Shown: positions 2,527 to 28,351 of the stretch, piece after piece
Position numbering within the stretch: position 1 is the first letter of the stretch
Layout: every line of letters starts with the position of its first letter
Origin: Candidatus Arthromitus sp. SFB-mouse-Japan
Lineage (GTDB): Bacteria; Bacillota; Clostridia; Clostridiales; Clostridiaceae
Direction of reading: 5' to 3'
Length of the DNA: 32,000 nucleotides
Assembly: GCF_000270205.1 (NCBI RefSeq)
Contig: NC_015913.1
Coordinates: 540,001-572,000, forward strand
The notes under the pieces: generated by a model
Seen by the model: only the letters and a program-made list of their open reading frames with translations
Told to the model about the DNA's origin: nothing
Databases searched by the model: none
Program-made: the position numbers and the translations under genes

Positions 2527-2677
2527 AAAGGATATTTTTCATTTAATATTGAATTCTTGGTTTAATATAATTTTAATAATGTTCTAGAAATAATTTATTT
2601 TAAATAATGTAAAATTGATTGAAGTTTTTTAAAAATAATGTATTTAATGAATGATTTATTTAGGAGAGATTGATATT

Positions 2678-3229
2678 ATGGACAATTTGAGTACAGAGGT
2701 AGTCACAGGAAAAGTTCGTTTTAATTGTGTGTATTTATGGGAACCTAGAATTATTAATAGTAATCCTGAATATTCAGTATGTTTATTAATACCAAAATCA
2801 GATGAAAGGACACTGAATGATATTAGACAGGCTATGAAAAATGCAAAGGAAATAGGGATAAGTATTTTAAATTACAATATGGATTTAGATCTTAAAATGC
2901 CATTAAGAGATGGCGATATTGAACGATCAGATGAGGTTTACGAAGGATGTTATTTTATGTATGCTAGTAGTGCTAATAAGCCACTTATATTAGATGAATT
3001 TAACAATCAAATTAATAATAAGGAAGATTTTTATAATGGTTGTTATGGATATGCATCAATTAATTTTTATGCTTTTAATACAGATAAGAATAAAGGCATA
3101 GCGTGTAGGATTAATAATATTGTCAAGATTGAAAATGGAGATTTACTAGATGATAAATCGACTGTAAAAGAAGATATGATATCTATAGAGGCTATAAAAT
3201 TAGAAAATTTAGAAGGTTTTATGGTTTAG
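2678..3229 (+). CDS. DUF2815-family protein (phage-type ssDNA-binding-like)
   Basis: Start ATG at 2678 follows aggagag (2662-2668), so the ORF-track start at 2651 is probably too far upstream. The sequence VVTGKVRF...YLWEP...EYSVCLLIPKSD...LKMPLRDGD...YEGCYFMYASS...FYNGCYGYASINFYAFN...NKGIACRINN matches my recollection of the DUF2815 consensus along its whole length. Confidence 0.7.
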   Translation: MDNLSTEVVTGKVRFNCVYLWEPRIINSNPEYSVCLLIPKSDERTLNDIRQAMKNAKEIGISILNYNMDLDLKMPLRDGDIERSDEVYEGCYFMYASSANKPLILDEFNNQINNKEDFYNGCYGYASINFYAFNTDKNKGIACRINNIVKIENGDLLDDKSTVKEDMISIEAIKLENLEGFMV

Positions 3230-3603: not shown

Positions 3604-4257
3604 ATGGACTTTGATAGTGTAGACGGAGATTATTATGAATATGATGAGTCTACTTACTCTGAGATTATAAAAGAATTGCTAGATTCAGGATATATAGATC
3701 AAGCTAAAGCTGATAGGTTTATACAAAATATTAATTCTGAATCAGTACAAGCGGAAATTATTAAAGAGTATAATTTATATGCAGTTGATTCATATGTGAA
3801 AGAAGGATATTATAGTGCGGAAGCTGGGGAATTAGAGAAGCAGTTAATAGAAGCACAATATGCAGGGAATGATGCACTAGTTGAAGAGTTAAATAATAAA
3901 TATATGGAACAATTAGAAAAAGATGGAGTGGTTTTTGATCTTTATGATAATACGTATTATCAAGATGCTGTGGATCATCTATTGAGTGAAGGATATATAG
4001 ATCAAGCTAAAGCTGATAGCTTTACACAAAACATTGATTTTGAATCAGTACAAGCAGAAATTGTTAAAGATTATACTTTATACGCAATTGATTTATGGGT
4101 AAAAGATGGATATTACAGTGAAGAGACTGGAAAATTAGAGAAACAAATAGTAGAAGCAGAATATGCGGGGAATGATTCACTAGCTGAAGAGTTAAGGAAT
4201 AAATACATGGAACAATTAGAGAATGATGAACTAGCAAGTTTTTATGAACTTGGATAA
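3604..4257 (+). CDS. Hypothetical acidic protein made of two tandem 101-aa repeats; possibly the truncated body of a secreted protein
   Basis: 217-aa ORF. I recognise no family. Internal duplication with a 303-nt period (see the repeat feature). A hairpin terminator follows. Confidence 0.6.
   Translation: MDFDSVDGDYYEYDESTYSEIIKELLDSGYIDQAKADRFIQNINSESVQAEIIKEYNLYAVDSYVKEGYYSAEAGELEKQLIEAQYAGNDALVEELNNKYMEQLEKDGVVFDLYDNTYYQDAVDHLLSEGYIDQAKADSFTQNIDFESVQAEIVKDYTLYAIDLWVKDGYYSEETGKLEKQIVEAEYAGNDSLAEELRNKYMEQLENDELASFYELG
3628..4233 (+). repeat. Intragenic tandem duplication, 2 x 303 nt
   Basis: ggatatatagatcaagctaaagctgatag occurs at 3688 and again at 3991, an offset of 303 nt or 101 aa. The encoded cores (SGYIDQAKADRFIQNI...NKYMEQLEKD and EGYIDQAKADSFTQNI...NKYMEQLEND) are roughly 70% identical by eye. 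Confidence 0.85.
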
Positions 4258-9237: not shown

Positions 9238-9276
9238 AAAGGAGAATTCAATTTTAAGTTGAATTCTCCTTTTATG
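9238..9276. terminator. Hairpin shared by the convergent murG and 9272-9856 genes
   Basis: 13-bp stem aaaggagaattca (9238-9250) pairs with tgaattctccttt (9260-9272), with a 9-nt loop. The T/A tracts are weak on both sides. Confidence 0.5.
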
Positions 9277-9856
9277 TTATAAAATTTTTATAGATACCAG
9301 ATGTCAATATATTTAAAAGTTTGTCTGAAACTATCATATACCACTGATTATTTTTTTTAGATAATTGTATATCTAATATGCTGGAAAATTTATATTTTGT
9401 AGATTTTAACGATTCTAAAAAAATTTCGTATTTATTTTCATCATCTGGAAAAGATGGATCATTTTTAAAAAAGTTTATTATGTGCTTAGCTATATCGTAA
9501 TATGTAAATCTTATTTTAAGTGTTGATGAGTTAAAAAATGTTTTTGAGGATAATATTTCGTAATCTATGTTGAACATCATATTTTGTATTTCGCTAATTA
9601 TTTCCATTTTACTCTCATTGTCTGATTGACTTAATACATTATCAAACACATGATTTATATTTGGTATAGAGATATTTAATAAATATTTATTGGCTTGTTC
9701 AATATCTTTTGAGGTATATGAATTAATAAAATTTTGAAATGTGATTTCACTATCTTTAGATATTGATAGGGAAAATAGGATAGCAAAACCTAAGACTATA
9801 GAAATTAGTATTACACAACAAAATTTTAATAATATATTTTTACTTGTAATTTTCAC
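9272..9856 (-). CDS. Hypothetical N-terminally membrane-anchored protein
   Basis: 194 aa with a GTG start after ACGGAG. One N-terminal hydrophobic helix (LLKFCCVILISIVLGFAILFSL). The rest is polar and matches no family I recognise. Confidence 0.55.
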   Translation of the reverse strand: MKITSKNILLKFCCVILISIVLGFAILFSLSISKDSEITFQNFINSYTSKDIEQANKYLLNISIPNINHVFDNVLSQSDNESKMEIISEIQNMMFNIDYEILSSKTFFNSSTLKIRFTYYDIAKHIINFFKNDPSFPDDENKYEIFLESLKSTKYKFSSILDIQLSKKNNQWYMIVSDKLLNILTSGIYKNFIT

Positions 9857-11035: not shown

Positions 11036-11524
11036 TTGACTACATTGTATGAACATAATATATTGGGATCTAAGATTTCGATGATTAGTGCTATTTTTAA
11101 TATACCATTTCTTGTTGGAGAAGGTACAATCTGTTTATATGAGCAAGGAATAACTCTTTTAGATAAAAATGGCAATGAAAAATACATTATAGGATTGGAT
11201 GAATTAGTTATTAGCTATGAATCCTTTGTTAACACAAGAAATTTAAAATACATTTCTAATATAAAGTTTTTTACATATGATATTAGTTCTAAATTTAGAA
11301 ACTTAAATAAAAAACTTAAGCATGTTAATGGATCTTATTATGGTAAGATGGTAATAACAATATCTGAGATTGGTGAAGTAGAACTTTTTGATAATCAATC
11401 ATTTAAATATAGAAAGTTTTATAATCTTGTTAATGATTTAAAAAATGGAATTAGCCCTTTAAAAAATATAGAGGAACAAAAAGGAACGTTTTTATCAAAG
11501 TTATTTAAATATAAATTATTTTAA
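11036..11524 (+). CDS. Hypothetical protein
   Basis: 162 aa. TTG start 7 nt after GGAGG (11024-11028), 20 nt after the TPR gene stop, so likely co-transcribed. No recognised motif. A strong terminator follows. Confidence 0.5.
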   Translation: MTTLYEHNILGSKISMISAIFNIPFLVGEGTICLYEQGITLLDKNGNEKYIIGLDELVISYESFVNTRNLKYISNIKFFTYDISSKFRNLNKKLKHVNGSYYGKMVITISEIGEVELFDNQSFKYRKFYNLVNDLKNGISPLKNIEEQKGTFLSKLFKYKLF

Positions 11525-11607: not shown

Positions 11608-11994
11608 TTAATTATTAAGTTCAAATGAGTATGTACCAATACCATTATCGTATTTTAAATCTATGTAGTATATTTTTTCACTGTTAGGTTTAAGAGTAAC
11701 TTCTTCTTTTGAAGAAGAACTTATATGTAAATATTCTTTACCATCTTCATCTACAACAGTTATATATGTTTTACCTGTTCTAAGTTTTAATGAAGATTTT
11801 AGAGTAGATTCTTTTGAAATTGTGAATTTATAGGATTCAGTGCCAGAAAACTTTGAAAAATCTTGTGTTATTTGGGAATTTGGTTCTATTTCACCAATTA
11901 TTGTTCTTTTTGTTTTAGGAGCATTAGAACATGAAGTTAAGAAAAGAGTAAGTGTTACAATAAATGTCCCTAATATTAAGTGTCGTGATTTCAT
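11608..11994 (-). CDS. Small putative lipoprotein
   Basis: 128 aa. The signal peptide MKSRHLILGTFIVTLTLFLTSC has a lipobox-like LTSC. The mature part is beta-rich and polar. It is transcribed divergently from the giant-gene operon. Confidence 0.65.
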   Translation of the reverse strand: MKSRHLILGTFIVTLTLFLTSCSNAPKTKRTIIGEIEPNSQITQDFSKFSGTESYKFTISKESTLKSSLKLRTGKTYITVVDEDGKEYLHISSSSKEEVTLKPNSEKIYYIDLKYDNGIGTYSFELNN

Positions 11995-12110
11995 TATTGA
12001 ACTCTCCTTTTAAGTACTTTGGATTTAGTATTGCACAAAAATAGGAAAAATTTCAAACAGTTTTACGATTTAACAATTATTTTAAGAATTTAGGAAAGGA
12101 AGGAATTAAT

Positions 12111-15100
12111 TTGAATAATGGAGCTTTAAAAATTTTAAATTCAATATTTTTACTCTTGTTTGTGGTAAATTGCTTGGGATTTTCTAGTGCATATTCTAAA
12201 AATAAAGTAGTTAAACAATCGAGAGCATATGATTTGGAATTAAAGATTGATAATGTGAATTTCAATTCAGCTAAATTTAGTTGGGTATATCCGGAAGACA
12301 TTGAATTTACATTTGGAGATTACATAAGTTTGATTTTGATTAATGAAGAGAATGGAAGTCAAGGAGAAACTCCTATATTTTCTGTCATTCATGGTAAAGA
12401 TGAGGCAGATTTATCAGAGATTACAAGTTTTGAAATTAATTCACTAATACATTCAACAAAGTATCAGTTGAAATTAGAATTAAGCAAAATACAAGGGGAT
12501 TATTATTCTGTTGAGGAAAGTTTTGAAACATCTGATTTTGAAATATTTGATATTCAAATAGAGGGAGCAGAGGAGGGAGTAGTTAGAAATAAGCTATTGA
12601 AGGTTAATTGGAAAACAAATCCTGAAACAGTAGATTTTGGAGAAAATGATAAGGTTGAGATATTTTTAAAGAAATTAAGTGACAATGATTTTTCGAAAAA
12701 GCCAATTTTTTCATCAGATAAAGATGTTAAGAGTGCAGAATTTTCTCTCCCTGTGTTTGAAGAAATGTATGATTTCAAAATAGCGTATCGCTTGAAAGGA
12801 AATGTAATTTATAGTGATTTCTTTTACTGTGATTTAAAAAGTGGGGGAGCAATTCCTGAAATGCAAGATATAAAATCTTCATCGGCTAAGCTTACTTTGA
12901 ATTATCTGAATGAGGAAATGTTAACTGAAAATAGTAAAGTTAATATCTACATTAAAGAAGATAGGAATCTTGATTATAGTAAAGATCCGATTGTTTCATT
13001 TGATGGTAAGGAAGAGATTATTAAAAATAAAGAATATGTATTTAATAAACTTAAGTTTTCAACAAAATATTATGTTAAAGTTCAACTTGTTGTTGAAAGT
13101 TTTAATGAATTTGGAAAAGATATGCTAGCTATGGATGAGAATAGATGTGAGTTTGAAACGAAAAAATTTGATATAAAGGATTTAGTTTTTACTGATGGAA
13201 ATGAAAATATCTCAAAGCTTAGTTGGAATTTTGATGGTGAGGATATTTCATTTTCTGAAGGAGATAATTTGAAAGTTTACATAAAAGAGAGCTCAAAAGA
13301 TAGCTATTCAGAGGATATTTTAAAAGACAGTACTTTAAGTGTAGATGAATTATTGACAAAAAAAGAGTTGAATATTACGTTTCCTAAGTATGATACAAAA
13401 TATGATATCAAGTTAATTTATACTATTGGGGGTAAACAGCTTTCTAAATATTTAACTCATACTGTTTCTTTACCTAAAATTGATTTTGGAGTAAAGGTGT
13501 TAAGTGATGAAAGTTTGGAATTTAAATTTAATTTTGATCAAAATAAAACTAGGTTTGAAAAAAATGAGAATGATAGAATAGAAATTTTTGTTAAAAAATA
13601 TGGTGAAAAAGATGAGGCTTATAAGTCTATAACATTTAACGATGAGGAGTTAAATGATATGGAAGTTTCATCAAGAGAGGGAGAAGATGTAACTGAGAAC
13701 AAAATAGAGCGAAAATTGAAGATTGAAAATATTTCATCTGTTGTTAATGGAGCTTCGGGATCAAGAGAGGGAAGTCAGGATGAAGGAGATCAAGTTAACA
13801 GTAGTGGAGGAGGTCAAGATGATTCAAGTTCCACGCAAGAGGAGAAAAAGCAATATGATTTTAAAATCGTTGTAACAAAAGATGGGGCTTTGTTCCAAGA
13901 GAAGTTTTATAGAGTGTCAATGGAAAAGGATTCACTTCAAATTGTTGATGTGGTTTTTAAGAAGATAAATGAGAAAAAGGTTGAGACAAGTGTTGAGTAT
14001 GCACCTTATGATTATGATTTTAATGATAAGGTTGAATCGCTTAGTTATACAAAGGAGAAGAATTCATCTTCTAAAAGTAAAAATCCTGAATTTAAGAGGT
14101 CATCGAATAAGACTACATCAATAACTAATGATTTTAAAACAAATAACAAATTTGAGATAGAGTTTGAAGATTTCGGAGTTTATAAATTGAAATTTTCGTA
14201 TAAGATGAAGGAAAATGGAACTACAGATGGGGTTACTACTACTACTAGAAATTCAGAAAATCAGTTTAAATGTAACGAGATGGAAAAAATTTATGATAAT
14301 AAGTTTGATGTTTTTAAATTTGAGTTAGTAGATGATGTTTTTAATGAAATAAAATTAAATTTAAATTTTGTGAATTATTATAAGCCTAAAAATGGAGATA
14401 AAGTTGATATATTTTTCAAAGTAAGTGGTGATGAAAGTGAATCTGAATCCGGAGATGATAGTTTTAGTAAAGATCCATTAGTCACATTTGTTCATAAAGA
14501 TAATGAACTCAATTTAGTAAATATGGGAGCTTTTGATTTATCTGGACTTGATGCTGGAACTAAGTATACTTTTAGAGCGAAATTCACCGCTAAGGATCAT
14601 ATATCAAATGTGATACAAGAAGATAAAAATGCAGCTACTAAAGATATTAAAATTTCTAATTTGAGGATTGATCATGTATCTGACATAGTTGCATATGTAA
14701 GATGGGAGCTTGAAGAGGGATTTGAGTTTGGAGTTAATGATAAAGTGGATATTTTCTATAAAGTAGATGGAGAGGAATATCCAGAAGAAGCAAACCAACA
14801 GGAAGAAGATTTATATATTAGTGATGGAGTTATTATTTATTTAGATACAGTTGATACTCAATATAAAGTAAAGTTTATATTTAGGAGTGGAAGTAAAACT
14901 CTTGAGAAAGAAATAGATTTTAATAATAAAATAGATGATTTAGATGCCGAAATTACAGATGTTTATGAAACATCCACTTATATAAAATGGAATTATCCTT
15001 CTAATTATGATTTTACAGATGGAGAAAGTATTGCAATATTTATAAAAACAAAGGATGGAACTTATGATGAAGAGCCAGATTATTATGTTGAACAAAATGA

Positions 15101-16496
15101 AGAAGAGGGCGAGGATGTAAAAACATTTAAAAGTATTAAAATGACAAATTTGTATCCAAATACAGAATATGATGCAAAAATTTTATTAGATTTTGGGGAT
15201 GTAGGGAAGAAAGAAAAGGAAGTTAGTTTTAAGACTAAAGAAATTGATATGTTAAATATTTCACTTAAGGCGTTGTCTAATAATTTTTTTGATATAGGCT
15301 GGGAGTTTTCTTCAGATACACTTGATTTTGATGAATATGTGGATTCTTTAAATATATATAGGAAGCTTGAAGATGATGATTTTTCGGATTCTAATATTAT
15401 TTATAAAATTGAAAATGGTATTGATAAAAGAAATAGTATAAGACTTGAAGTAGATGATATTTATGAGAGTTATGATATTAAGATTGAATACAAATTTTTA
15501 TCTGGAAGTATAGAGAAAACGATTTCTGCAGGAGGGTTTCTTGCGGAGTTTGAAGGGGATACATCTAATTTGATGGTGAAATATCCTGAATCTTTAGTAT
15601 TTGAAAAAGGTGATTTTATAAAAGTTCTTGCAAGAGAAGGATTAGAGGGAGATTATGAAGATTTTATAAATATAGAACATTCATCTTCTGAAAATTTAAA
15701 TAAATTAGAAAATATAGAATTAGATAGTTTACTTAGTGGAACATCGATTATTTTGAGCATTAACAATAAAAATACTCAAGTTTTTCCTGTAGAGATTACT
15801 TATGAATATGAGGAAGTTGGAGATGAAGACGGGGGAGAATCAGAATATCCAGTTTTAGATATTGTAAGTGAAATGAAAGGAAATTGGGTAGATATAAGTA
15901 TTCCAGATGAATATGATATTGATACTTCATCAGAAGTTTTAAATAGCATTGGTGGTAATTCTTACTATGACCAATTAGAAGATGGAACGTATGTAATAGT
16001 AATAGATAGAATTGTACCTAAAAAAGTTTACTCTAATGTATTTGTTTTAACATCTGATATGAGTGGAAATGAAGTTAGGTTTGATATAGGTGAATTTCAA
16101 TTAGAACCATATAATTTGTTAGAAGATTTTCTATTTAACTCTTATTATTTTGCTTTTGATAGGGAACCTGATGAAAACGGATACAATTATTGGAAAGATC
16201 AACTTGAAGTAGAGGGAAATTTGTCAGGGAAGTATTTTCTTATTAATTTAATGTTTGCAGAAAGAGAGTTTGCAGATAGAAATCTGAGTGATGAAGATTT
16301 GATTAAAGCTTTATATCAAATTGTAGTTAACAGACAGTATGATACTGAAGGATTAAATTATTGGATTTATATGTATGGTGAATATTTAAATGAGTTCGGC
16401 GGTGATAAATATGAAGCGAAGAAAACTTTAGTTTTAAGGATGGCTTATGAACCTGAGTTCGGAAGATTATGTGATGAAATGGGAATAGCTTGGTAA
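12111..16496 (+). CDS. Giant secreted repeat protein 1 (1461 aa): leader, 11 beta-sandwich-like modules, pre-terminal module, DUF4214-like C-terminus
   Basis: TTG start after ggaagga. Hydrophobic leader ILNSIFLLLFVVNCLGFSSAYS. Modules span nt 12228-15815. The pre-terminal module is aa 1236-1333. The C-terminal domain (nt 16110-16493) carries the motif twice (YYFAFDREPDENGYNYW and LYQIVVNRQYDTEGLNYW) and ends MGIAW. Confidence 0.85.
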   Translation: MNNGALKILNSIFLLLFVVNCLGFSSAYSKNKVVKQSRAYDLELKIDNVNFNSAKFSWVYPEDIEFTFGDYISLILINEENGSQGETPIFSVIHGKDEADLSEITSFEINSLIHSTKYQLKLELSKIQGDYYSVEESFETSDFEIFDIQIEGAEEGVVRNKLLKVNWKTNPETVDFGENDKVEIFLKKLSDNDFSKKPIFSSDKDVKSAEFSLPVFEEMYDFKIAYRLKGNVIYSDFFYCDLKSGGAIPEMQDIKSSSAKLTLNYLNEEMLTENSKVNIYIKEDRNLDYSKDPIVSFDGKEEIIKNKEYVFNKLKFSTKYYVKVQLVVESFNEFGKDMLAMDENRCEFETKKFDIKDLVFTDGNENISKLSWNFDGEDISFSEGDNLKVYIKESSKDSYSEDILKDSTLSVDELLTKKELNITFPKYDTKYDIKLIYTIGGKQLSKYLTHTVSLPKIDFGVKVLSDESLEFKFNFDQNKTRFEKNENDRIEIFVKKYGEKDEAYKSITFNDEELNDMEVSSREGEDVTENKIERKLKIENISSVVNGASGSREGSQDEGDQVNSSGGGQDDSSSTQEEKKQYDFKIVVTKDGALFQEKFYRVSMEKDSLQIVDVVFKKINEKKVETSVEYAPYDYDFNDKVESLSYTKEKNSSSKSKNPEFKRSSNKTTSITNDFKTNNKFEIEFEDFGVYKLKFSYKMKENGTTDGVTTTTRNSENQFKCNEMEKIYDNKFDVFKFELVDDVFNEIKLNLNFVNYYKPKNGDKVDIFFKVSGDESESESGDDSFSKDPLVTFVHKDNELNLVNMGAFDLSGLDAGTKYTFRAKFTAKDHISNVIQEDKNAATKDIKISNLRIDHVSDIVAYVRWELEEGFEFGVNDKVDIFYKVDGEEYPEEANQQEEDLYISDGVIIYLDTVDTQYKVKFIFRSGSKTLEKEIDFNNKIDDLDAEITDVYETSTYIKWNYPSNYDFTDGESIAIFIKTKDGTYDEEPDYYVEQNEEEGEDVKTFKSIKMTNLYPNTEYDAKILLDFGDVGKKEKEVSFKTKEIDMLNISLKALSNNFFDIGWEFSSDTLDFDEYVDSLNIYRKLEDDDFSDSNIIYKIENGIDKRNSIRLEVDDIYESYDIKIEYKFLSGSIEKTISAGGFLAEFEGDTSNLMVKYPESLVFEKGDFIKVLAREGLEGDYEDFINIEHSSSENLNKLENIELDSLLSGTSIILSINNKNTQVFPVEITYEYEEVGDEDGGESEYPVLDIVSEMKGNWVDISIPDEYDIDTSSEVLNSIGGNSYYDQLEDGTYVIVIDRIVPKKVYSNVFVLTSDMSGNEVRFDIGEFQLEPYNLLEDFLFNSYYFAFDREPDENGYNYWKDQLEVEGNLSGKYFLINLMFAEREFADRNLSDEDLIKALYQIVVNRQYDTEGLNYWIYMYGEYLNEFGGDKYEAKKTLVLRMAYEPEFGRLCDEMGIAW
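12228..15815 (+). repeat. Array of 11 divergent protein-coding modules (94-151 aa each) within giant gene 1
   Basis: Module boundaries read from the translation: 12228-12533 (A), 12534-12839 (B), 12840-13163 (A), 13164-13472 (B), 13473-13925 and 13926-14285 (divergent, with low-complexity inserts), 14286-14642 (A), 14643-14930 (B), 14931-15239 (A), 15240-15533 (B), 15534-15815 (A-like). The repeats are visible at protein level only. The DNA copies are too diverged to be recent. Confidence 0.7.
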
Positions 16497-16519
16497 TTTT
16501 GTATTTATGGAGGAGAGGA

Positions 16520-19500
16520 ATGAAAATATGTATGAAGAGATTCATTATTAATCTTATGACTCTTATATTTTTGTTTGAATTGATACCATTTGGGGAAATG
16601 GGAATTAAGTTCGGCTTTTTTAAGAAAGCCGAAGCTTATTATACCCAACTTGAAATGGTTGCACCAGGTTATGTGATAAGCCCTGAGGAAGGGGGGATTG
16701 TATTTGATTTAAGTCAAAGATTATCATCTTCAATGAGTGTTGAATCGTTTAGTGTAAAGAATACAAATCCTGAACAGCAGAAGAAAGATTTAAAAGAGGA
16801 ATCTTCTGATGGAGTTAGATGGTTATCAAAGGATGAAATGATAAATGGTCATATTTATGAAATTGAAAGTAAGATTTATGATACTGACACGCAGGAAACA
16901 ATAACATTTATAAATTCTTTTAAGTATATAGATAAAAATATAGCTTATAATCCTAAGCTATCTTTTTCGAAGTTTGATTCTAGTAGAATGGTTACTCAAG
17001 ATGTTATATTTGATTTTTCTGAGTGCAGGGAATTAATAGATAATTCAAATAATCTTAAGCTTGAGATTTTAAATTCTGATTTAACAAGAGCAGAGATAGA
17101 TCCTATGAATATTAATAAAAATGATGTTGTAAATAATGGATATAAGTATACTATTTCTAGAGCAGCTTCTTTATTTAGACCAAACAAAGATTATATAGTT
17201 AGACTCCATGCAGATGGTATTATTTGGGATAAAATGATTTCTTGTCCAGTAAAGGGGAATCCTACGATAGTTGAAAATATTAAACCTGTAGCTATGGATT
17301 TTAGATATTATCCTGAAAGCAGAAATTTTTACTTTCATACAATAGATCTTGGAATTTTTAAAAAATTTGAGGATAGGATTAATGTTGTGGTTAAGGCTAT
17401 TTTAAATAATCCAAAAAAAGGTTTTGTTCCAGTTGAGGTAACAGCTGAAATACCACATGTAATAGAAATTAAAGTTCCAGAAGAATATTATACTACATCA
17501 ATACCAAGTGATTTGAGGGTTTATGTTATTGATAAGAGTACTGGACTTGTACTTGCTGAATATTTATTTCAGTTTACATTTAGGTCTGATAAGGGAATTA
17601 TGATGTGGAGAAATTTAAAGCATTCAGCTGAAAAAGAAGCAACAGGATATAAGATTAATAAAATAAAATTAGATCATACTGACGATAACAATACTATTCC
17701 ACATTCATGGGATGGACTTCCTAGGGCACATTATATAACTCTTTATGATAATAAATTAGAAAATCAAATAGGTGGAGAATTCAGATTTGATGTTACAGAT
17801 CCTGAGTATAGAAAACAATTCCTTGAGCCGACTCATGATGTTAGAGGAGCTAATTTTAAGATACCATTTACTGATATGAAGCAAGGGTTTAATAGTTATA
17901 ATTTTAAAGTTGAATCTAGTAGTCAGTATCCAGAGTGGGCATATGCACATATACCATTTGGATTTTATGCAGATGTTGCTGAAATAAAAGATTTAGATAT
18001 TAATATAAAAAATGTAAAACCAAATGAAAATGGAGATAAGTATAGTTTTACTCTTGAAATAAAGAATCAAAAAATTGTTATTGGCGATAAGATGAGCTTT
18101 ATAGATGATGACGGTAAGGAGCATATATCTACTTCAAATAGTTCGAAGACATTTGACTTTAAAGATGTCCCAATGGTATTTGGAGGGAAATATGTGGTAA
18201 CTTATAATCAAATAAGTTCTTTGCTTCATTTTAAATCTACAGATTTATCTATATTGTTTAATCCAGTTGTTATAGGTACTTTTTCAGATGAGAGGGATAG
18301 TATTGAAATTACTATCGATAATAAATATGAAAAAATTTTGAGCACTGATAAAGGTCAAAATAAGTTAAGAATACTTAATATGAATGGTACTAGTACGGGA
18401 AATGATTTTTCAAATTTTGGGATAGGAAAAACTAAATTTGCGTTAAATGGAAATTTGATTGAAGGAGAAAATTATATAGCAGAGGTATCTAATTCTAAGG
18501 GAGAAGTATATAAAACTACTTTCCAGTATTCTACAATGAAACTTGATTTATCGGAGATAACAGGTACAACAGCAAAGCTTGACTGGGAATATCCTGATAA
18601 TTACCTAATAACTGATGGAGATGCATTAAGTATATATTTCAAAAAAGATGGATCTGGATATCCTGCTGTTCCCGATGCAAAAATAGTGCATGGTTTTCAA
18701 GGAGTAGATTTCAATGACGTTACTACATACACGATTAAGAATATGAGCCCGAATGTAAACTATACGGCAAAGCTTGAACTTGCAACAAATGAAGGCATGA
18801 CTTATGTGGATGAAGTTGAATTTGTAACGAGTACTTTTAAAATTTTAAATGAAGAAATTGAGGGTATTTCTGAAGATGGAACCGTAAATAGTAAATCTAT
18901 AACTTTTAAGTGGGATATAAATCTTGGTGATATAGAATTTTATGAAGGTGATAAAGTTGAGGTTTTTCTTAAACCACTTTCTCATAATGCATTTCCCAAA
19001 ACACCGACGGCAACTATTGATAAAGATTTAAATAGAATGAAACGGATTAAATTTGATGTACCAAATTATTATGAATCTTATAGTGTCAAAATTGTATATA
19101 CAATAGGTGGAGTTAGGCATACGAGTAAAGTATTAAATTTTACTGTGAATATGCAAGATGTTGAAGTATATATGAGTACTATTACTCAGTGTACAGCTAA
19201 TATTAACTGGAAGTATCCAAAGGATGTAGATGTAGATAGTAATTTTGAAGAGGTTAGGATTTATACAAAAAAACACAGTGATTTAGAATTTAAGCTTGAA
19301 AAAACTTATAATAAATCTGAGAAAGCTCTTAATGATGTAGTTAAACATGTGATTAAGAATTTAGGTATCGATACCAAATATAAAGCTAAATTAGTATTTA
19401 AAATTGGTGAAAAGTCAGTTGCAGGAGTGAAAGAAGAGATAACTCAAGTTGTTGAGACTGAATTTAAAACAGAGAATTTTGTTATAGAAAAATTTAATGT

Positions 19501-22500
19501 TACGAATGATATAAGTAATTTCATAATAGCAACATGGGATATAAAAGATGATAGTTATCCTTATACTACAAATGATAGTGTGGCACTTTTTGTAAAAGAA
19601 AGAGGAGAACCATCACAAAATTATATTAGAATTAATTCTATGGGAGGAGATATTGCAGGGAAAAGATCATTTAATGGATCTATGGTACCTAAATACAATG
19701 TGGATTACGATGTAAAATTGACCTATACCTTAGGAGAAAAAGAAGTTAGTGCTTATTCAGCTATTAAATTAGATATTGGTTATATAAAACTCAAGATAGA
19801 CGAAATAAATGATACTAAAATTAAACTTTCTTGGACTTATCCAAATGAGATTTTAAGAGGTGATAAGGTCGAAATAAGTTTAAAAAATCTTAGTAATGAA
19901 AATGACGTAAAATCTGAATCAAAGGTTCAGAATTTTGATCATGGAAATACTGTTATGATTGAAGAGTTTAGAGAAAAAGAATTTGATTTAACTAAGGATA
20001 ATATGTATGAAGTTAAACTTAGGTTAACTTCAGATTATTTTTATCCTATGGAAGAATCATTCAGGTTTAAGGCTACTTCTGATTTTCAAATTTTAAGTTT
20101 AGATGGTGAGTCTATGGACTCTAGTACATTTAAACTTGATTGGGATTTTTATAATAATAATCAAGAATTTAATACAAGTGATAAAGTTGAAATTTTATAT
20201 AAACGATTGAATGAATTAGATTTTCAAAGTAATGCTAGGACGACAAGTGAAGATGATCAATTTACAGGTATTAGTTCTGTTAATATGCAAACTGGAACTG
20301 AATTGAGCAGATTTAAATCCTACATAGTTCAGGGACTTGATGTGAATAAGGATTATTTATTTAGAGTACGTTATACATTTAATAAAGATAGAATTCAAAA
20401 GGTAGTATATAAAGATTTAGTAGGAAAAACAGAGCCTAAAAAACTGAATTCAAGTGTAATTGATGTACAGCCAACAGGTGTTAAAATTATGCTTGAGTAT
20501 CCAGAGGCCTATGAAATAGTGGAAGGCGATATTTTAGATATATTTATAAAGGAAAAAGAAGGAGCAAATTATGGAGTTAATCCTAATTTTACTGGGAAAC
20601 ATGGTAATGAAGAGGGCGATTTTGATTTAAATGAGGTAACTATGCTTGATATACTTGGATTATCTCCAGATAAAGAGTATAATGCTAAAGTTGTATTTTG
20701 GCCAGATGGTGGGTCAGGAAATAAAGAAGAGGTAGAACTTAGTTTCAAAACAGATACCGTAAAAGGTATAGCTGAAGTATCTATAGGTGATGTATTGGAT
20801 TATGTTGTAAAAGTTGGTATCAAGATGAATCCAGAAGAAATTATTTTAAGTGATAAGGATAGTTGTAAAATTTTTATAAAGAAAAAGGATCAACCACATT
20901 ATCAAGATACACCAAATGGTGAAATGCGAGGAGATATATTCAACGAAGAAAGATTTGTATCAGCATATTTCGATGAGTTGAATGCAGAGTATACTGTAAA
21001 AGCTGTGGTAAATATCGGAGGTAGTGAATTTGAATATGAGACCGACTTTGTAAGCAAAGTTGATGATTTTAGTATTGATGTTATAGAAATTAATCCGATG
21101 ACAACACAAGTTGAATGGAAATATCCAGATAACTATACTCTTGTAAATGGTGAAAGTATTCAAATATTTATTAAGTATAAAGATGAAGAAGATTTCTTGA
21201 GTGAACCTGATCTTGAACTTATTCAATCAGAAGAAATGAGCTTATATGATACAAATTTGGTTGAGTTATATTCACTAATACCTGATACAGATTATGAAGT
21301 TAAAGTTAAATTGAATTTATTGGAGGCAGATATTGAACCGATTATTAAAGAATTTACAACAACGACTTTTGAAATAGAAAATTTGGAGATAGCAGATGTA
21401 AGCAGTGATGGAATGTCTCTCACATGGGAGTTAAGTACAGAGGAATTGGATTTTTTAGATGATTATGATAATTTAGCTATATTTATAAAAAATAAGAATG
21501 AAGATGATTATGATTTTTCGAATCCTGTGGCGGAGTTTACTGAAGACTTAAATAATATAAGATCTGTGTCTTTTGAGACAGAAGAGAGTATAGCAGATAT
21601 TGATATTTATGTATCATATTTAATTGAAGATTATGAAGCAGCTATGGAAATATCATATACAGCAATTGAACTTAGTGTTGAAGTGCAAGATGAGGGTGTA
21701 TTAGTTGAATGGAGTTATCCTCCTGGAATAGAATTTGAACCTGAGGATAAACTCGATATTTATTTGAAACACGCAAATAAGTCAGGATATAAAACAGAGC
21801 CAAATTTTAGATACACTCATGAAGAAGATGGGGATTTGACTGAGTTGAATCAAATATTCTTTAAGAAATTAGAAAAAGGGAACTATAAGATGAAATTTTC
21901 TTTAATTACTGCTGATATGAGATATAATCCTATAGAAATTGAGTTTAGTACGGAAGGTAGTCAAGAAGTAATAGATGGAATAGAACTTAAGTTTAATGGT
22001 AAATCGAGTGGAAGAAAAATAGAACTAAATATTGTTGGAGATGAAGAATTTGATTATGAAAAAGGATTTTATATTGATCCTGAAGGATTAGATCTTGAAA
22101 TAGATGAAGATAGAAATAAGTTTATAGTTTTAAATTTAGTTCCAAATAAGGAATATAAAAATATAATTATAACGTTCTTTACAGCAGATGATGAAGAAGT
22201 TAATTTTGTTGTTAAAAATGTGAAAATAGATCCAGAAACTCTTTTGGAAGAATTCATAACAAATATTTATAAGTTTGCGTTTGAACGTTATCCAGATGAA
22301 GAAGGATATAGCTATTGGTTAGGGAAACTTCTTGAAAAAGGTGAAATTACAGGTAAATTTGTTTTATATAATTTGATGTTTTCAGAACGTGAGTTCTCTG
22401 ATAGAAATCTTTCTGATGATGATCTCATAAAGGTTTTATATCAGATAGTGGTTAATAGAGAGTATGATGAGGGAGGACTTAATTATTGGATAGGTGAATA

Positions 22501-22624
22501 TAGAAACACATATTTACCTCAAGCAAATAATGATAGTTATGAAGCACAGAAGGCTATAGTAGAGAGAATGTTACATGAACAGGAATTTAAAGATTTGTGC
22601 AACAAAATGGGAATCTTATGGTAA
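16520..22624 (+). CDS. Giant secreted repeat protein 2 (about 2034 aa): leader, about 640-aa unique head, 11 alternating modules, pre-terminal module, DUF4214-like C-terminus
   Basis: The ORF is open from 16490, but the ATG at 16520 follows GGAGGAGAGG and gives MKICMKRFIINLMTLIFLFELIPF, a charged n-region plus a hydrophobic core. The C-terminal domain (nt 22235-22621) carries IYKFAFERYPDEEGYSYW and LYQIVVNREYDEGGLNYW and ends MGILW. It aligns by eye with the C-terminus of gene 1. Confidence 0.85.
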   Translation: MKICMKRFIINLMTLIFLFELIPFGEMGIKFGFFKKAEAYYTQLEMVAPGYVISPEEGGIVFDLSQRLSSSMSVESFSVKNTNPEQQKKDLKEESSDGVRWLSKDEMINGHIYEIESKIYDTDTQETITFINSFKYIDKNIAYNPKLSFSKFDSSRMVTQDVIFDFSECRELIDNSNNLKLEILNSDLTRAEIDPMNINKNDVVNNGYKYTISRAASLFRPNKDYIVRLHADGIIWDKMISCPVKGNPTIVENIKPVAMDFRYYPESRNFYFHTIDLGIFKKFEDRINVVVKAILNNPKKGFVPVEVTAEIPHVIEIKVPEEYYTTSIPSDLRVYVIDKSTGLVLAEYLFQFTFRSDKGIMMWRNLKHSAEKEATGYKINKIKLDHTDDNNTIPHSWDGLPRAHYITLYDNKLENQIGGEFRFDVTDPEYRKQFLEPTHDVRGANFKIPFTDMKQGFNSYNFKVESSSQYPEWAYAHIPFGFYADVAEIKDLDINIKNVKPNENGDKYSFTLEIKNQKIVIGDKMSFIDDDGKEHISTSNSSKTFDFKDVPMVFGGKYVVTYNQISSLLHFKSTDLSILFNPVVIGTFSDERDSIEITIDNKYEKILSTDKGQNKLRILNMNGTSTGNDFSNFGIGKTKFALNGNLIEGENYIAEVSNSKGEVYKTTFQYSTMKLDLSEITGTTAKLDWEYPDNYLITDGDALSIYFKKDGSGYPAVPDAKIVHGFQGVDFNDVTTYTIKNMSPNVNYTAKLELATNEGMTYVDEVEFVTSTFKILNEEIEGISEDGTVNSKSITFKWDINLGDIEFYEGDKVEVFLKPLSHNAFPKTPTATIDKDLNRMKRIKFDVPNYYESYSVKIVYTIGGVRHTSKVLNFTVNMQDVEVYMSTITQCTANINWKYPKDVDVDSNFEEVRIYTKKHSDLEFKLEKTYNKSEKALNDVVKHVIKNLGIDTKYKAKLVFKIGEKSVAGVKEEITQVVETEFKTENFVIEKFNVTNDISNFIIATWDIKDDSYPYTTNDSVALFVKERGEPSQNYIRINSMGGDIAGKRSFNGSMVPKYNVDYDVKLTYTLGEKEVSAYSAIKLDIGYIKLKIDEINDTKIKLSWTYPNEILRGDKVEISLKNLSNENDVKSESKVQNFDHGNTVMIEEFREKEFDLTKDNMYEVKLRLTSDYFYPMEESFRFKATSDFQILSLDGESMDSSTFKLDWDFYNNNQEFNTSDKVEILYKRLNELDFQSNARTTSEDDQFTGISSVNMQTGTELSRFKSYIVQGLDVNKDYLFRVRYTFNKDRIQKVVYKDLVGKTEPKKLNSSVIDVQPTGVKIMLEYPEAYEIVEGDILDIFIKEKEGANYGVNPNFTGKHGNEEGDFDLNEVTMLDILGLSPDKEYNAKVVFWPDGGSGNKEEVELSFKTDTVKGIAEVSIGDVLDYVVKVGIKMNPEEIILSDKDSCKIFIKKKDQPHYQDTPNGEMRGDIFNEERFVSAYFDELNAEYTVKAVVNIGGSEFEYETDFVSKVDDFSIDVIEINPMTTQVEWKYPDNYTLVNGESIQIFIKYKDEEDFLSEPDLELIQSEEMSLYDTNLVELYSLIPDTDYEVKVKLNLLEADIEPIIKEFTTTTFEIENLEIADVSSDGMSLTWELSTEELDFLDDYDNLAIFIKNKNEDDYDFSNPVAEFTEDLNNIRSVSFETEESIADIDIYVSYLIEDYEAAMEISYTAIELSVEVQDEGVLVEWSYPPGIEFEPEDKLDIYLKHANKSGYKTEPNFRYTHEEDGDLTELNQIFFKKLEKGNYKMKFSLITADMRYNPIEIEFSTEGSQEVIDGIELKFNGKSSGRKIELNIVGDEEFDYEKGFYIDPEGLDLEIDEDRNKFIVLNLVPNKEYKNIIITFFTADDEEVNFVVKNVKIDPETLLEEFITNIYKFAFERYPDEEGYSYWLGKLLEKGEITGKFVLYNLMFSEREFSDRNLSDDDLIKVLYQIVVNREYDEGGLNYWIGEYRNTYLPQANNDSYEAQKAIVERMLHEQEFKDLCNKMGILW
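18530..21955 (+). repeat. Array of 11 strictly alternating A/B modules (98-118 aa) within giant gene 2
   Basis: Boundaries, checked against codon positions: A 18530-18832, B 18833-19150, A 19151-19474, B 19475-19774, A 19775-20080, B 20081-20434, A 20435-20755, B 20756-21058, A 21059-21364, B 21365-21661, A 21662-21955. Type A has W-x-Y-P early and ends [EK]-F-x-T. Type B has W-[DEN]-[FIL] early and usually ends Y-x-[VI]-K-[ILV]-x-Y-T-[IL]-G. Confidence 0.75.
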
Positions 22625-22628
22625 TATA

Positions 22629-22662
22629 TTAACCATCAATATTAATTGATGGTTAATTTTTT
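22629..22662 (+). terminator. Rho-independent terminator of the giant-gene operon
   Basis: 12-bp stem ttaaccatcaat (22629-22640), loop atta, attgatggttaa (22645-22656), then T6 (22657-22662). Confidence 0.85.
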
Positions 22663-22790
22663 GGCAAATTTGGAAATAATTAATTTTGTAAAGTTAATAA
22701 TGATAATTTGAGTTAAAAATAGTAGATAGACTTCAGGTGCAATTATAAAGTAAGATATAAATTATTGGTAATAAACGTAGGAGGTGGATC

Positions 22791-27225: not shown

Positions 27226-27813
27226 ATGAATTTAAATAAAACTGAGCGAAATATAATTATAGATATTGATAATTACAAAAATAAGTATTTAAATGATCCG
27301 ATTTTTACGAAATACGTAATAGAGTTTTCTGAAAAGGGTGGGGCTACAGCATTTTTAACTAATAATTTTACAAATTTTAAAATATTAAAAGAGTCAACGA
27401 GTTTACCAGTATTTTTTGAAGTTGATAGACAATTTAATGGAATAATAAATATAGATCCTGAATTTTTAATTATAGATATAGTTAACTTTGATGGTATTTA
27501 TGAACAATTAAATGAATTTTTAAATGGAATTAGAGATAAATTTAAGGGAAAAATAATCGGTAAGATTTTTAATAAGAAACAGGCTATATTGGCGTGTAAA
27601 TTATATTTGGATGGTATTTTGATTGATGTATCTGAAAATAATTTTGATAAAGATTTTATAGCCGAAATTTATTTTGATATAAATATATCTGTTATATTAA
27701 GAATTAAATCTTTAGATATAAATAGTTGCAAGGATTTAGTTAAAATTGGTATAAATTACTTTATTTTGGGGGAGGATATAACTAATCCTAATAAAATTCT
27801 GAGTAAGATTTAA
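27226..27813 (+). CDS. Hypothetical protein, with weak resemblance to a ribulose-phosphate-binding TIM-barrel C-terminus
   Basis: 195 aa with RBS aaggaga. The only hint is the C-terminal KIGINYFILGEDITNPNKI, which resembles the G-x-x-x-V-V-G-x-A-I-T-x-P ending of NanE/PyrF-type barrels. The rest is unrecognised. Confidence 0.5.
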   Translation: MNLNKTERNIIIDIDNYKNKYLNDPIFTKYVIEFSEKGGATAFLTNNFTNFKILKESTSLPVFFEVDRQFNGIINIDPEFLIIDIVNFDGIYEQLNEFLNGIRDKFKGKIIGKIFNKKQAILACKLYLDGILIDVSENNFDKDFIAEIYFDINISVILRIKSLDINSCKDLVKIGINYFILGEDITNPNKILSKI

Positions 27814-27814
27814 A

Positions 27815-27852
27815 AAAACTATACTTCTTAACTGAAGTATAGTTTTAATTTT
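27815..27852. terminator. Bidirectional Rho-independent terminator
   Basis: 13-bp stem aaaactatacttc (27815-27827), loop ttaact, gaagtatagtttt (27834-27846). An A7 run lies upstream and a T-rich tail downstream, so both strands read hairpin plus U-tract. It sits between convergent stops at 27811-27813 and 27845-27847. Confidence 0.8.
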
Positions 27853-28351
27853 TTGCTGAACTCATTATCAAAATTTTTAAAACCTTTTCTTTATATATCA
27901 ATTCTGTAATCATATCCAAATTTTTAATTATTTCATCAAATGATATATTCAAATTCAAATATAAATTACTATCAATTATTCGCTTTGATTTTAGAAAATA
28001 TTTTTTATCAAATGAAAAATATTTATTGTTTAATTTAGGTGATGATATATTTTCATTGAAGACGTCTTTATGATTAATGTATAAAAAATCTATTATGTTT
28101 GGATAAAGATCAAATAAAGAAGGATTGTAGAATACTAAATCATTGATCTTAATTCCACAAAATTTTTTATACCCTAGGGTGTACTCATTAGCTGGTATGT
28201 TTTTAAAATATATCTTTACTTCTGAGGTATTATTTAATTTGGCAGCAGACATAATTATATTTTCGATTTCTTCATTTTTGAGGTTATAGGTATTTTTTTC
28301 ATGATTATTGTTACGAATAATTTTGAATTTATAATTTTGATTATTTTGCAT
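27845..28351 (-). CDS. Hypothetical protein
   Basis: 168-aa ORF, extremely Asn/Lys/Ile-rich, with no recognised motif. It is called only from ORF length and its position between a terminator and an intergenic gap. Confidence 0.45.
   Translation of the reverse strand: MQNNQNYKFKIIRNNNHEKNTYNLKNEEIENIIMSAAKLNNTSEVKIYFKNIPANEYTLGYKKFCGIKINDLVFYNPSLFDLYPNIIDFLYINHKDVFNENISSPKLNNKYFSFDKKYFLKSKRIIDSNLYLNLNISFDEIIKNLDMITELIYKEKVLKILIMSSAKN

Follow-up and report, generated by a model that had tools for sequence, protein, structure and literature searches.

In a stretch of 32,000 nucleotides (nt) from the chromosome of Candidatus Arthromitus sp. SFB-mouse-Japan (contig NC_015913.1, positions 540,001 to 572,000; the whole of this stretch is referred to as the window), we analyzed two adjacent genes, SFBM_0510 and SFBM_0511, which encode giant repeat proteins of a segmented filamentous bacterium (SFB). 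The products, designated A and B, are probably co-transcribed paralogues from a secreted protein family that is specific to SFB and carries a DUF4214 domain at the C-terminus, and they would act as wall-tethered stalks of fixed length, B carrying a variable head. They are uncharacterised members of a family that has been described before; new are the fixed number of 11 modules, the orphan head of B and the dimorphism of this head.

According to the model that we propose, the signal peptide would direct the export of A and B through the Sec pathway, and the DUF4214 tail would hold the proteins non-covalently at the cell wall or surface layer. A sortase is missing from SFB, as are SLH and CWB2 systems. 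The FN3 rod would form a stalk of fixed length that pushes the N-terminus outwards. The variable head of B would then be the exposed and selected surface, which may bind a host or mucus ligand or be a target for antibodies or phages. A single FN3 domain has a length of about 3.5 nm, from which a length of ~40 nm is predicted for the 12 sandwiches of A and one of ~60 nm for the 18 sandwiches of B. The mature proteins have masses of 166 kDa (A) and 230 kDa (B).

The relevant family was delineated by Pamp et al. in 2012, who reported SFB-specific secreted clusters (Cluster.1 and Cluster.3) that have a C-terminal DUF4214-like region in common, an FN3 domain being present in one of the clusters, proposed them as components of surface structures and noted their strain polymorphism (PMC3371716). 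A and B share the defining features of these clusters, namely confinement to SFB, a predicted signal peptide and a C-terminal DUF4214 domain. The SFB DUF4214 proteins, which include the T helper 17 (Th17) and B-cell antigen P3340 (SFBNYU_003340) and the CD8 antigen SFBNYU_003240, have in common with A and B the signal peptide, the DUF4214-type tail and the lack of a classical anchor. As a family they evolve faster than the proteome average and are polymorphic between strains (PMC3371716, PMC7474095, PMC13174671). However, A and B are far larger than P3340 (~114 kDa in tagged form), and they differ from the other SFB DUF4214 proteins in that their body is a fixed rod of 11 FN3 modules and that the head of B has an allele absent from the sequenced laboratory strains. 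The possibility that A or B is P3340 or another known SFB antigen was rejected, since none of the six reading frames of the window contains the 7B8, 1A2 or CD8 epitopes or the human-SFB peptides that have been published.

Both proteins are identical or almost identical in the SU and NYU strains of mouse SFB, as judged by exact-sequence look-up, and their GenBank annotation reads "hypothetical" or "DUF4214 domain-containing protein". A literature search with the locus tags gave no match. Elsewhere in mouse SFB there is a third giant FN3/DUF4214 paralogue of 1918 amino acids (aa) (P0077), which differs from the pair in its head (~425 aa) and its extreme C-terminus. A further FN3/DUF4214 family of ~1430 aa occurs in other SFB-like metagenome-assembled genomes (MAGs), for instance at 8001-12317 of contig L005, where another DUF4214 gene lies nearby. 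The proteins of this family (P0016-P0027) were considered as orthologues of A and rejected because they have another C-terminal tail and another genomic context; they are paralogues.

The module rod

The repeats were delimited with a hidden Markov model (HMM) self-trained on the modules of A and B, for which the best match among shuffled sequences had an E-value of 0.14. A first-pass annotation, made from the DNA letters and their open reading frames (ORFs), had described ORFs of 1461 and about 2034 aa, each with a hydrophobic leader, exactly 11 modules, a pre-terminal module and a C-terminal domain, the last two being homologous between the proteins. The ORF boundaries, the hydropathy profiles, the module HMM and the BLASTP alignment confirmed these features in turn. 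The alignment of A with B has 31% identity over 748 aa (E = 2e-75) and includes the pre-terminal module and the C-terminal domain. The module skeleton described at the same time, consisting of a Trp, the motif G-D-x-[VI]-x-[IV]-[FY]-x-K and a Y-x-x-K motif, holds in 15-21 of the 22 modules. The Trp is found in 15 of 22 modules, the Asp or Glu of the G-D motif in 21, the Phe or Tyr in 18 and the following Lys in 20, while the Tyr of Y-x-x-K is found in 19 and its Lys or Arg in 20.

The suggestion that the modules are FN3-like beads on a string gained support from both profile and structure comparisons. A Pfam search, recommended in the first-pass annotation, returned fn3 (PF00041) with 66.3 bits for B and 30.8 bits for A, above the gathering threshold of 25 bits, and it also returned the C-terminal DUF4214 above its curated cutoff. 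Structural modelling of the head of B and of residues 1716-2034 of B gave beta-sandwich arrays. The AlphaFold2 model of residues 1716-2034, with a mean predicted local distance difference test score (pLDDT) of 82.6, consists of an FN3 module, a second beta-sandwich and an eight-helix domain (pLDDT > 90). In a Foldseek search, B module 11 and the pre-terminal module matched FN3 tandems of fibronectin, neural cell adhesion molecule (NCAM) and titin.

The modules directly abut one another and alternate between two types: the mean pairwise alignment score is 68 among odd-numbered modules and 62 among even-numbered ones, but 48 when an odd module is compared with an even one, a pattern that recalls the super-repeats of titin. 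Moreover, the B module of the same number gave the top score for A1, A2, A8 and A10 and a near-top score for A4 and A9 (6 of the 11 modules). This matching by number points to an ancestor gene that already had 11 modules and was duplicated as a whole, and the sequence comparison thus supports an origin of A and B by whole-gene duplication. The likeness to eukaryotic FN3 arrays (fibronectin, the titin A-band, cytokine receptors) and macroglobulin arrays (CD109, TEP1, C5) extends to the same fold in the same head-to-tail order (Foldseek E = 1e-5 to 1e-10). However, with identities of 8-16% and TM-scores of 0.1-0.25, the latter being low because the inter-domain geometry differs, it is an analogy at the level of the fold and not family membership, and it implies neither a thioester nor a bait region.

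The gene pair, its 23-nt gap and the flanking genes are kept in rat SFB and in more distant SFB MAGs, and one orthologue is located in the chicken-gut MAG "Candidatus Dwaynia gallinarum". Disruption of the genes in close relatives had been raised at the outset as an observation that would count against this reading; instead, both ORFs were intact in all lineages examined. Conservation of the module number, another point proposed for checking, was found in all 14 B orthologues tested, the most distant of which has 43% identity, and in 10 of 13 scored orthologues of A. Since synonymous sites between these lineages are saturated (synonymous divergence, dS, > 1) and the 11 modules have nonetheless been kept, the length of the rod is constrained. 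The ratio of non-synonymous to synonymous divergence (dN/dS) of the rod between mouse and rat SFB is 0.22, in keeping with functional constraint.

The architecture invites comparison with fibrillar adhesins and periscope proteins (SasG/Aap, Rib/alpha-like, Bap, Ebh), in which, as in A and B, a secreted rod of Ig- or FN3-like sandwiches projects an N-terminal functional region. Those adhesins are usually anchored by sortase through LPXTG and have near-identical repeats of strain-variable number, whereas A and B have no LPXTG and their repeats are old and diverged. A and B therefore fall outside the length-variable periscope class: 11 modules were found in all 14 B orthologues and most A orthologues, and the modules have diverged strongly from one another. 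No G5, Rib, Big or Bap family was detected in A or B by Pfam.

Several observations concern the integrity of individual copies. Low-complexity inserts rich in Ser, Gly and acidic residues (Asp/Glu) interrupt module 5 of A (~13698-13850, aa 530-580) and module 7 (~14400-14440), and the small length differences among the members of the A cluster (1459-1461 aa) may map to these inserts. B is broken into 1229 + 805 aa in one assembly, and A is broken into 1366 + 81 aa in a Logan assembly of rat SFB, all other copies being whole. The annotation and assembly discrepancies concern the cluster members P0045 and P0040/P0041 and, in rat SFB, the split A at 5623-9977 of L002. The split copies of A and B may be frameshifts or sequencing errors.

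Leaders and C-terminal domain

Beyond the leader, no transmembrane-like segment was seen in the hydropathy profile of A or B. The record from strain NYU places the start of A 17 codons further downstream (1444 aa), by which the signal peptide is lost (window positions 12111-12161). Anchoring of A as a lipoprotein through the Cys of its leader (V-V-N-C) was considered and rejected, since most orthologues have a Tyr or Ser in place of this Cys; B has no lipobox. Neither protein contains an LPXTG or NPXTG motif, which places them outside the sortase-anchored class, and a Pfam scan (E <= 0.1) gave no SLH, CWB2, LysM or choline-binding domain. The same scan, which returned only DUF4214, fn3 and sub-threshold noise, likewise places A and B outside the class of GW-type wall-binding proteins. 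The first-pass annotation was thus correct in reporting that classical Firmicute anchors are absent.

Its further statement that there is no recognisable anchor domain does not hold, because the C-terminal domain is Pfam DUF4214, a proposed surface anchor of SFB (PMC7474095, PMC12780176). The status of this domain had been missed, as had the non-repetitive N-terminal region of 630 aa in B. The view that the proteins are unexplained by known surface-protein types is not supported either, as the family has been described (PMC3371716) and is annotated as such in GenBank; it stands for the mode of anchoring by DUF4214 and for the ligands of A and B. In the whole proteins DUF4214 (PF13946; gathering threshold 23.2 bits) scored 45.4 bits in A and 53.3 bits in B (E = 9e-12 and 3e-14). 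The isolated C-terminal domains scored 55-63 bits in two stretches each, and this double match within the helical domain indicates a two-repeat unit. Pamp et al. predicted that the SFB DUF4214 C-terminus resembles a phycobilisome linker-like helical domain (PDB 2KY4; PMC3371716), and our model of the B domain is likewise an all-helical bundle of two repeats. Sequence searches of the PDB with the DUF4214 profile and with full-length A and B gave no match, nor did an NCBIfam search with A and B. When homologues of the isolated domain were sought with a word-indexed search, the outcome was uninformative, with no more than 7 fragments.

In B, conservation is by far the highest in DUF4214, with a column conservation of 0.88 compared to 0.46-0.79 for the other regions, and its identity across lineages is 76-94% where that of the FN3 modules drops to 21-60%, and for some modules to 21-36%. 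Such extreme conservation would fit a ligand on the bacterium itself. SFB have been reported to lack sortase, and Jonsson et al. (2020) postulated a C-terminal motif as the SFB anchor; P3340, which bears this motif, was located at the cell wall by immuno-electron microscopy (immuno-EM) (PMC7474095). This location is also cited in a cryo-electron tomography (cryo-ET) study from 2025, which terms DUF4214 a "likely surface-anchoring domain" (PMC12780176); the literature support for wall localisation relates to P3340 only.

The head of B

The head of B precedes the rod. Its AlphaFold2 model (pLDDT 87.9; predicted TM-score, pTM, 0.80) is all-beta with about six beta-sandwiches, and Foldseek matched it to macroglobulin-domain arrays (CD109, TEP1, C5), cytokine-receptor FN3 arrays and the BSP domain of the adhesin Bap (7c7u). 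There was no Pfam match at E <= 10. A profile search of 1.84 billion representative proteins gave only three matches, comprising a fragment of 63 aa and two full-length proteins of ~2,030-2,050 aa, of which one is the B orthologue P0008. At the level of sequence, the head thus has no relatives outside SFB among these proteins.

The second unusual property of the head is its dimorphism. When the window was compared with a mouse-type SFB contig (L004), the DNA identity per bin of 300 nt was 99-100% over 20.5 kb, with the exception of 16.7-18.2 kb, where it was 62-91%. In agreement with this, the 90% protein cluster of B contains two classes, one of 2034 aa, to which all laboratory strains belong, and one of 2029 aa, which derives from several metagenome sources and is common in metagenome assemblies. 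The classes differ at ~143 of 420 residues (~34%) within aa 147-543, whereas in the remainder of the protein they differ at 1-20 of 1614 residues. The cassette is sharply bounded and does not include the first head domain (aa 40-146). Variants in the backbone are not correlated with the class of the head: one pair of proteins with alleles 1 and 2 differs at a single backbone residue, and another pair shares distinctive backbone substitutions. The alleles have thus been shuffled among backbones, which indicates recombination. Between the alleles, dS is 0.48 in the cassette and 0.006 in the rest of the gene. The former value equals the divergence of the same segment between mouse and rat SFB (0.49-0.63), which argues that the alleles are old or imported and have been kept or exchanged within mouse SFB. 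Hence, the cassette represents two anciently diverged alleles that are exchanged by recombination among mouse SFB strains, and diversifying selection on the head is suggested by these sequence comparisons. A scan of the genome collection for extra or silent copies of the head, which relies on short peptide patterns, detected only three single-copy orthologous loci, one of them in "Candidatus Dwaynia gallinarum", and no such copies. Of all parts of B the head varies most, and the combination of a conserved tail and a variable tip would support the proposed polarity, with the tail at the wall and the head outermost.

Genomic setting and relation to the surface structures of SFB

The first-pass annotation had proposed co-transcription of the two genes, and this proposal is supported by the 23-nt gap with its ribosome-binding site (RBS) and by a single terminator after B. 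As it had indicated, B starts at ATG 16520 behind an RBS, 23 nt past the stop of A; this is the best start, the mechanical ORF beginning at TTG 16490. The spacing between A and B is the same in rat SFB, L003 and L004, and folding revealed no significant RNA structure in the spacer. The only strong terminator does lie downstream of the second gene, where a hairpin (22628-22657) with a free energy of -14.3 kcal/mol (z = -5.5) is followed by TTTTTT. From these sequence signals, A and B look like one transcription unit. A second hairpin (16606-16639; -16.1 kcal/mol, z = -3.8) lies within the signal-peptide coding region of B; it was considered as an attenuator and rejected, since it is not kept in rat SFB or L003 and is probably a chance structure.

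Upstream of A there is a conserved block that is probably the promoter or operator of the pair. Its 17-nt core TTTAACARTTATTTTAA (12069-12085) is invariant in all six SFB loci analyzed that span the region upstream of A, which include lineages with a coding dS > 1. The core occurs once per locus, always just upstream of A, and in one exact copy in the window. A scan for sigma-70 promoters gave no score above shuffle expectation, and the block was matched to no known sigma factor. It should be noted here that the 116-nt intergenic region containing GATTTAACAATTATTTTAAGAAT also serves a divergent ORF of 128 aa (11608-11994, minus strand).

Table 1. Positions of the genes, protein domains and candidate regulatory features of the SFBM_0510-SFBM_0511 pair in the window.
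Feature	Position	Strand	Details
Conserved upstream block, putative promoter or operator of the pair	12067..12089	+	GATTTAACAATTATTTTAAGAAT, 23 nt
Gene A, SFBM_0510	12111..16496	+	TTG start, 1461 aa, AGGAAGG RBS upstream; BAK56288.1 / WP_014017877.1, exact-sequence look-up
A signal peptide	12111..12191	+	~aa 1-27, likely cleavage after SSA; hydropathy profile
A, 11 FN3-like modules	12234..15824	+	aa 42-1238; module HMM, Pfam fn3, module alignment
A, degenerate pre-terminal beta-sandwich module	15825..16097	+	~aa 1239-1329; homologous to B counterpart
A, C-terminal DUF4214 domain	16098..16493	+	aa 1330-1461, two DUF4214 repeats; PF13946 E = 9e-15, 2 stretches
A-B spacer	16497..16519	+	23 nt, with RBS GGAGGAGAGGA at 16509-16519
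Gene B, SFBM_0511	16520..22624	+	2034 aa; BAK56289.1 / WP_014017878.1, exact-sequence look-up
B signal peptide	16520..16636	+	~aa 1-39; A-E-A before Tyr40, Ala39 invariant in orthologues
B, N-terminal head	16637..18535	+	aa 40-672, ~630 aa, ~six beta-sandwich domains; AlphaFold2
B, dimorphic hypervariable cassette	16958..18148	+	aa 147-543; DNA and protein comparison
B, 11 FN3-like modules	18536..21967	+	aa 673-1816; module HMM, Pfam fn3
B, pre-terminal beta-sandwich module	21968..22225	+	~aa 1817-1902; model residues 110-186 all-beta
B, C-terminal DUF4214 domain	22226..22621	+	aa 1903-2034, eight-helix bundle, two repeats; Pfam E = 1e-16, 2 stretches
Intrinsic terminator of the pair	22628..22663	+	13-bp stem, then T6 run

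The window has a GC content of ~27%, and the neighbours of the pair are ordinary chromosomal genes, with genes for RecJ, a histidine kinase, MurG and a TPR protein on the 5' side and genes for ZapA, a rubrerythrin, a CDF transporter, a MATE transporter and a transglycosylase on the 3' side. Small ORFs at 9272-9856 (minus strand), 11036-11524 (plus strand), 11608-11994 (minus strand) and 27226-28351 gave no Pfam match; the synteny of these ORFs beside the pair is kept in mouse, rat and distant SFB lineages. Upstream of recJ, an Enc34-type phage single-stranded DNA-binding protein (2651-3229; Pfam E = 5e-49) is encoded among small unannotated ORFs (6-2479, 3604-4257), and this region may be a prophage or mobile-element remnant.

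Several points weigh against the proposal that A and B are wall-tethered stalks with a selected head. The DUF4214 domain is acidic in both proteins (isoelectric point 4.2-4.6), unlike most binders of anionic wall polymers, and the literature also knows DUF4214 from Gram-negative proteins, so that it could serve protein-protein assembly instead. In the head, dN/dS is ~0.5 overall, and thus not > 1, with values of 0.7-0.9 in aa 255-384 (rod, 0.22). The cleavage sites assigned to the signal peptides of A and B are heuristic. Phage display identified four antibody targets of SFB (SFB3340, 5460, 3310 and 15470; bioRxiv 10.1101/2023.10.13.562275), neither A nor B being one of them, and our literature search found no expression, abundance or localisation data on SFBM_0510 and SFBM_0511.

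The last point also bears on a stronger version of the stalk model, according to which A and/or B are subunits of visible surface structures of SFB. The 2025 cryo-ET study described a surface layer (S-layer), a hair-like layer and tip hairs, the composition of which was stated to be unknown; the filaments of the ordered hair-like layer are 28 +/- 4 nm long and ~1.4 nm wide, and disordered hairs of 34 +/- 6 nm are present at the adhesive tip (PMC12780176). The composition of these hairs is explicitly left open in that study, the Th17 antigen having been excluded from it. A uniform layer thickness would be in keeping with thin rods in which the diverged FN3 domains number strictly 11, a rod of 11-12 domains with its ~40 nm is of the same order as 28-34 nm, and the layer is seen on the SFB of both mouse and rat, in which the pair is kept. 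However, with predicted lengths of ~40 and ~60 nm the rods would be longer than the 28-34 nm that were measured, and with a diameter of ~2-2.5 nm an FN3 domain is too wide for the 1.3-1.4 nm reported. These two genes in particular also start from a low prior, as there is at least one further giant FN3/DUF4214 paralogue (P0077), and ~14-20 other DUF4214 proteins are known from the literature. We consequently regard it as doubtful that A and/or B are subunits of the hair-like layer or tip hairs with the head of B as a determinant of attachment or host specificity, and equally doubtful that the cassette in B determines, in such hairs and at the level of strains, epithelial attachment or the escape from IgA or phages.

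It is improbable that A and B are released as soluble or matrix proteins (a "fuzzy coat", mucus binders or antibody decoys), DUF4214 serving oligomerisation or secretion. The acidic nature of the domain, its presence in secreted Gram-negative proteins and the lack of both a covalent anchor and a transmembrane segment would be compatible with release, as would the observation of Jonsson et al. that many SFB exoproteins appear anchorless (PMC7474095). Yet the motif-bearing P3340 is wall-associated by immuno-EM (PMC7474095, PMC12780176), the conservation of the tail fits a ligand on the bacterium itself, and a conserved rod length makes little sense in a free protein. Finally, a stage-specific role of A and B not in growing filaments but in the envelope of spores or intracellular offspring, as an S-layer lattice, spore appendages or a nap, is very unlikely: SFB do change their surface layers in development (PMC12780176), the conserved gene-specific upstream element would permit developmental control and the SFB S-layer protein is likewise still without a gene, but the S-layer subunits of the offspring are globular with a spacing of 8 nm (PMC12780176) as opposed to rods of 40-60 nm, inspection of the upstream block by eye gave no recognisable match to a sporulation-sigma promoter, and the flanking genes for MurG, ZapA and rubrerythrin are not sporulation genes.

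SFB are a model commensal for the induction of Th17 cells and IgA, which depends on intimate and host-specific attachment, and almost all of their surface molecules are unassigned. The pair and the third paralogue provide a concrete set of rod-shaped candidates of fixed length for the unassigned surface structures. For the DUF4214 proteins in general, the conserved tail and variable tip of B offer a natural experiment on their polarity. Wild mouse SFB differ from the laboratory reference strains in the head cassette while being 99-100% identical elsewhere, and the cassette could bear on phenotypic differences between SFB from different vendors and on the design of antibody and quantitative PCR reagents. 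If A and/or B were hair subunits and the cassette such a determinant, mouse SFB "strains" that look identical genome-wide would differ functionally at their exposed tip.

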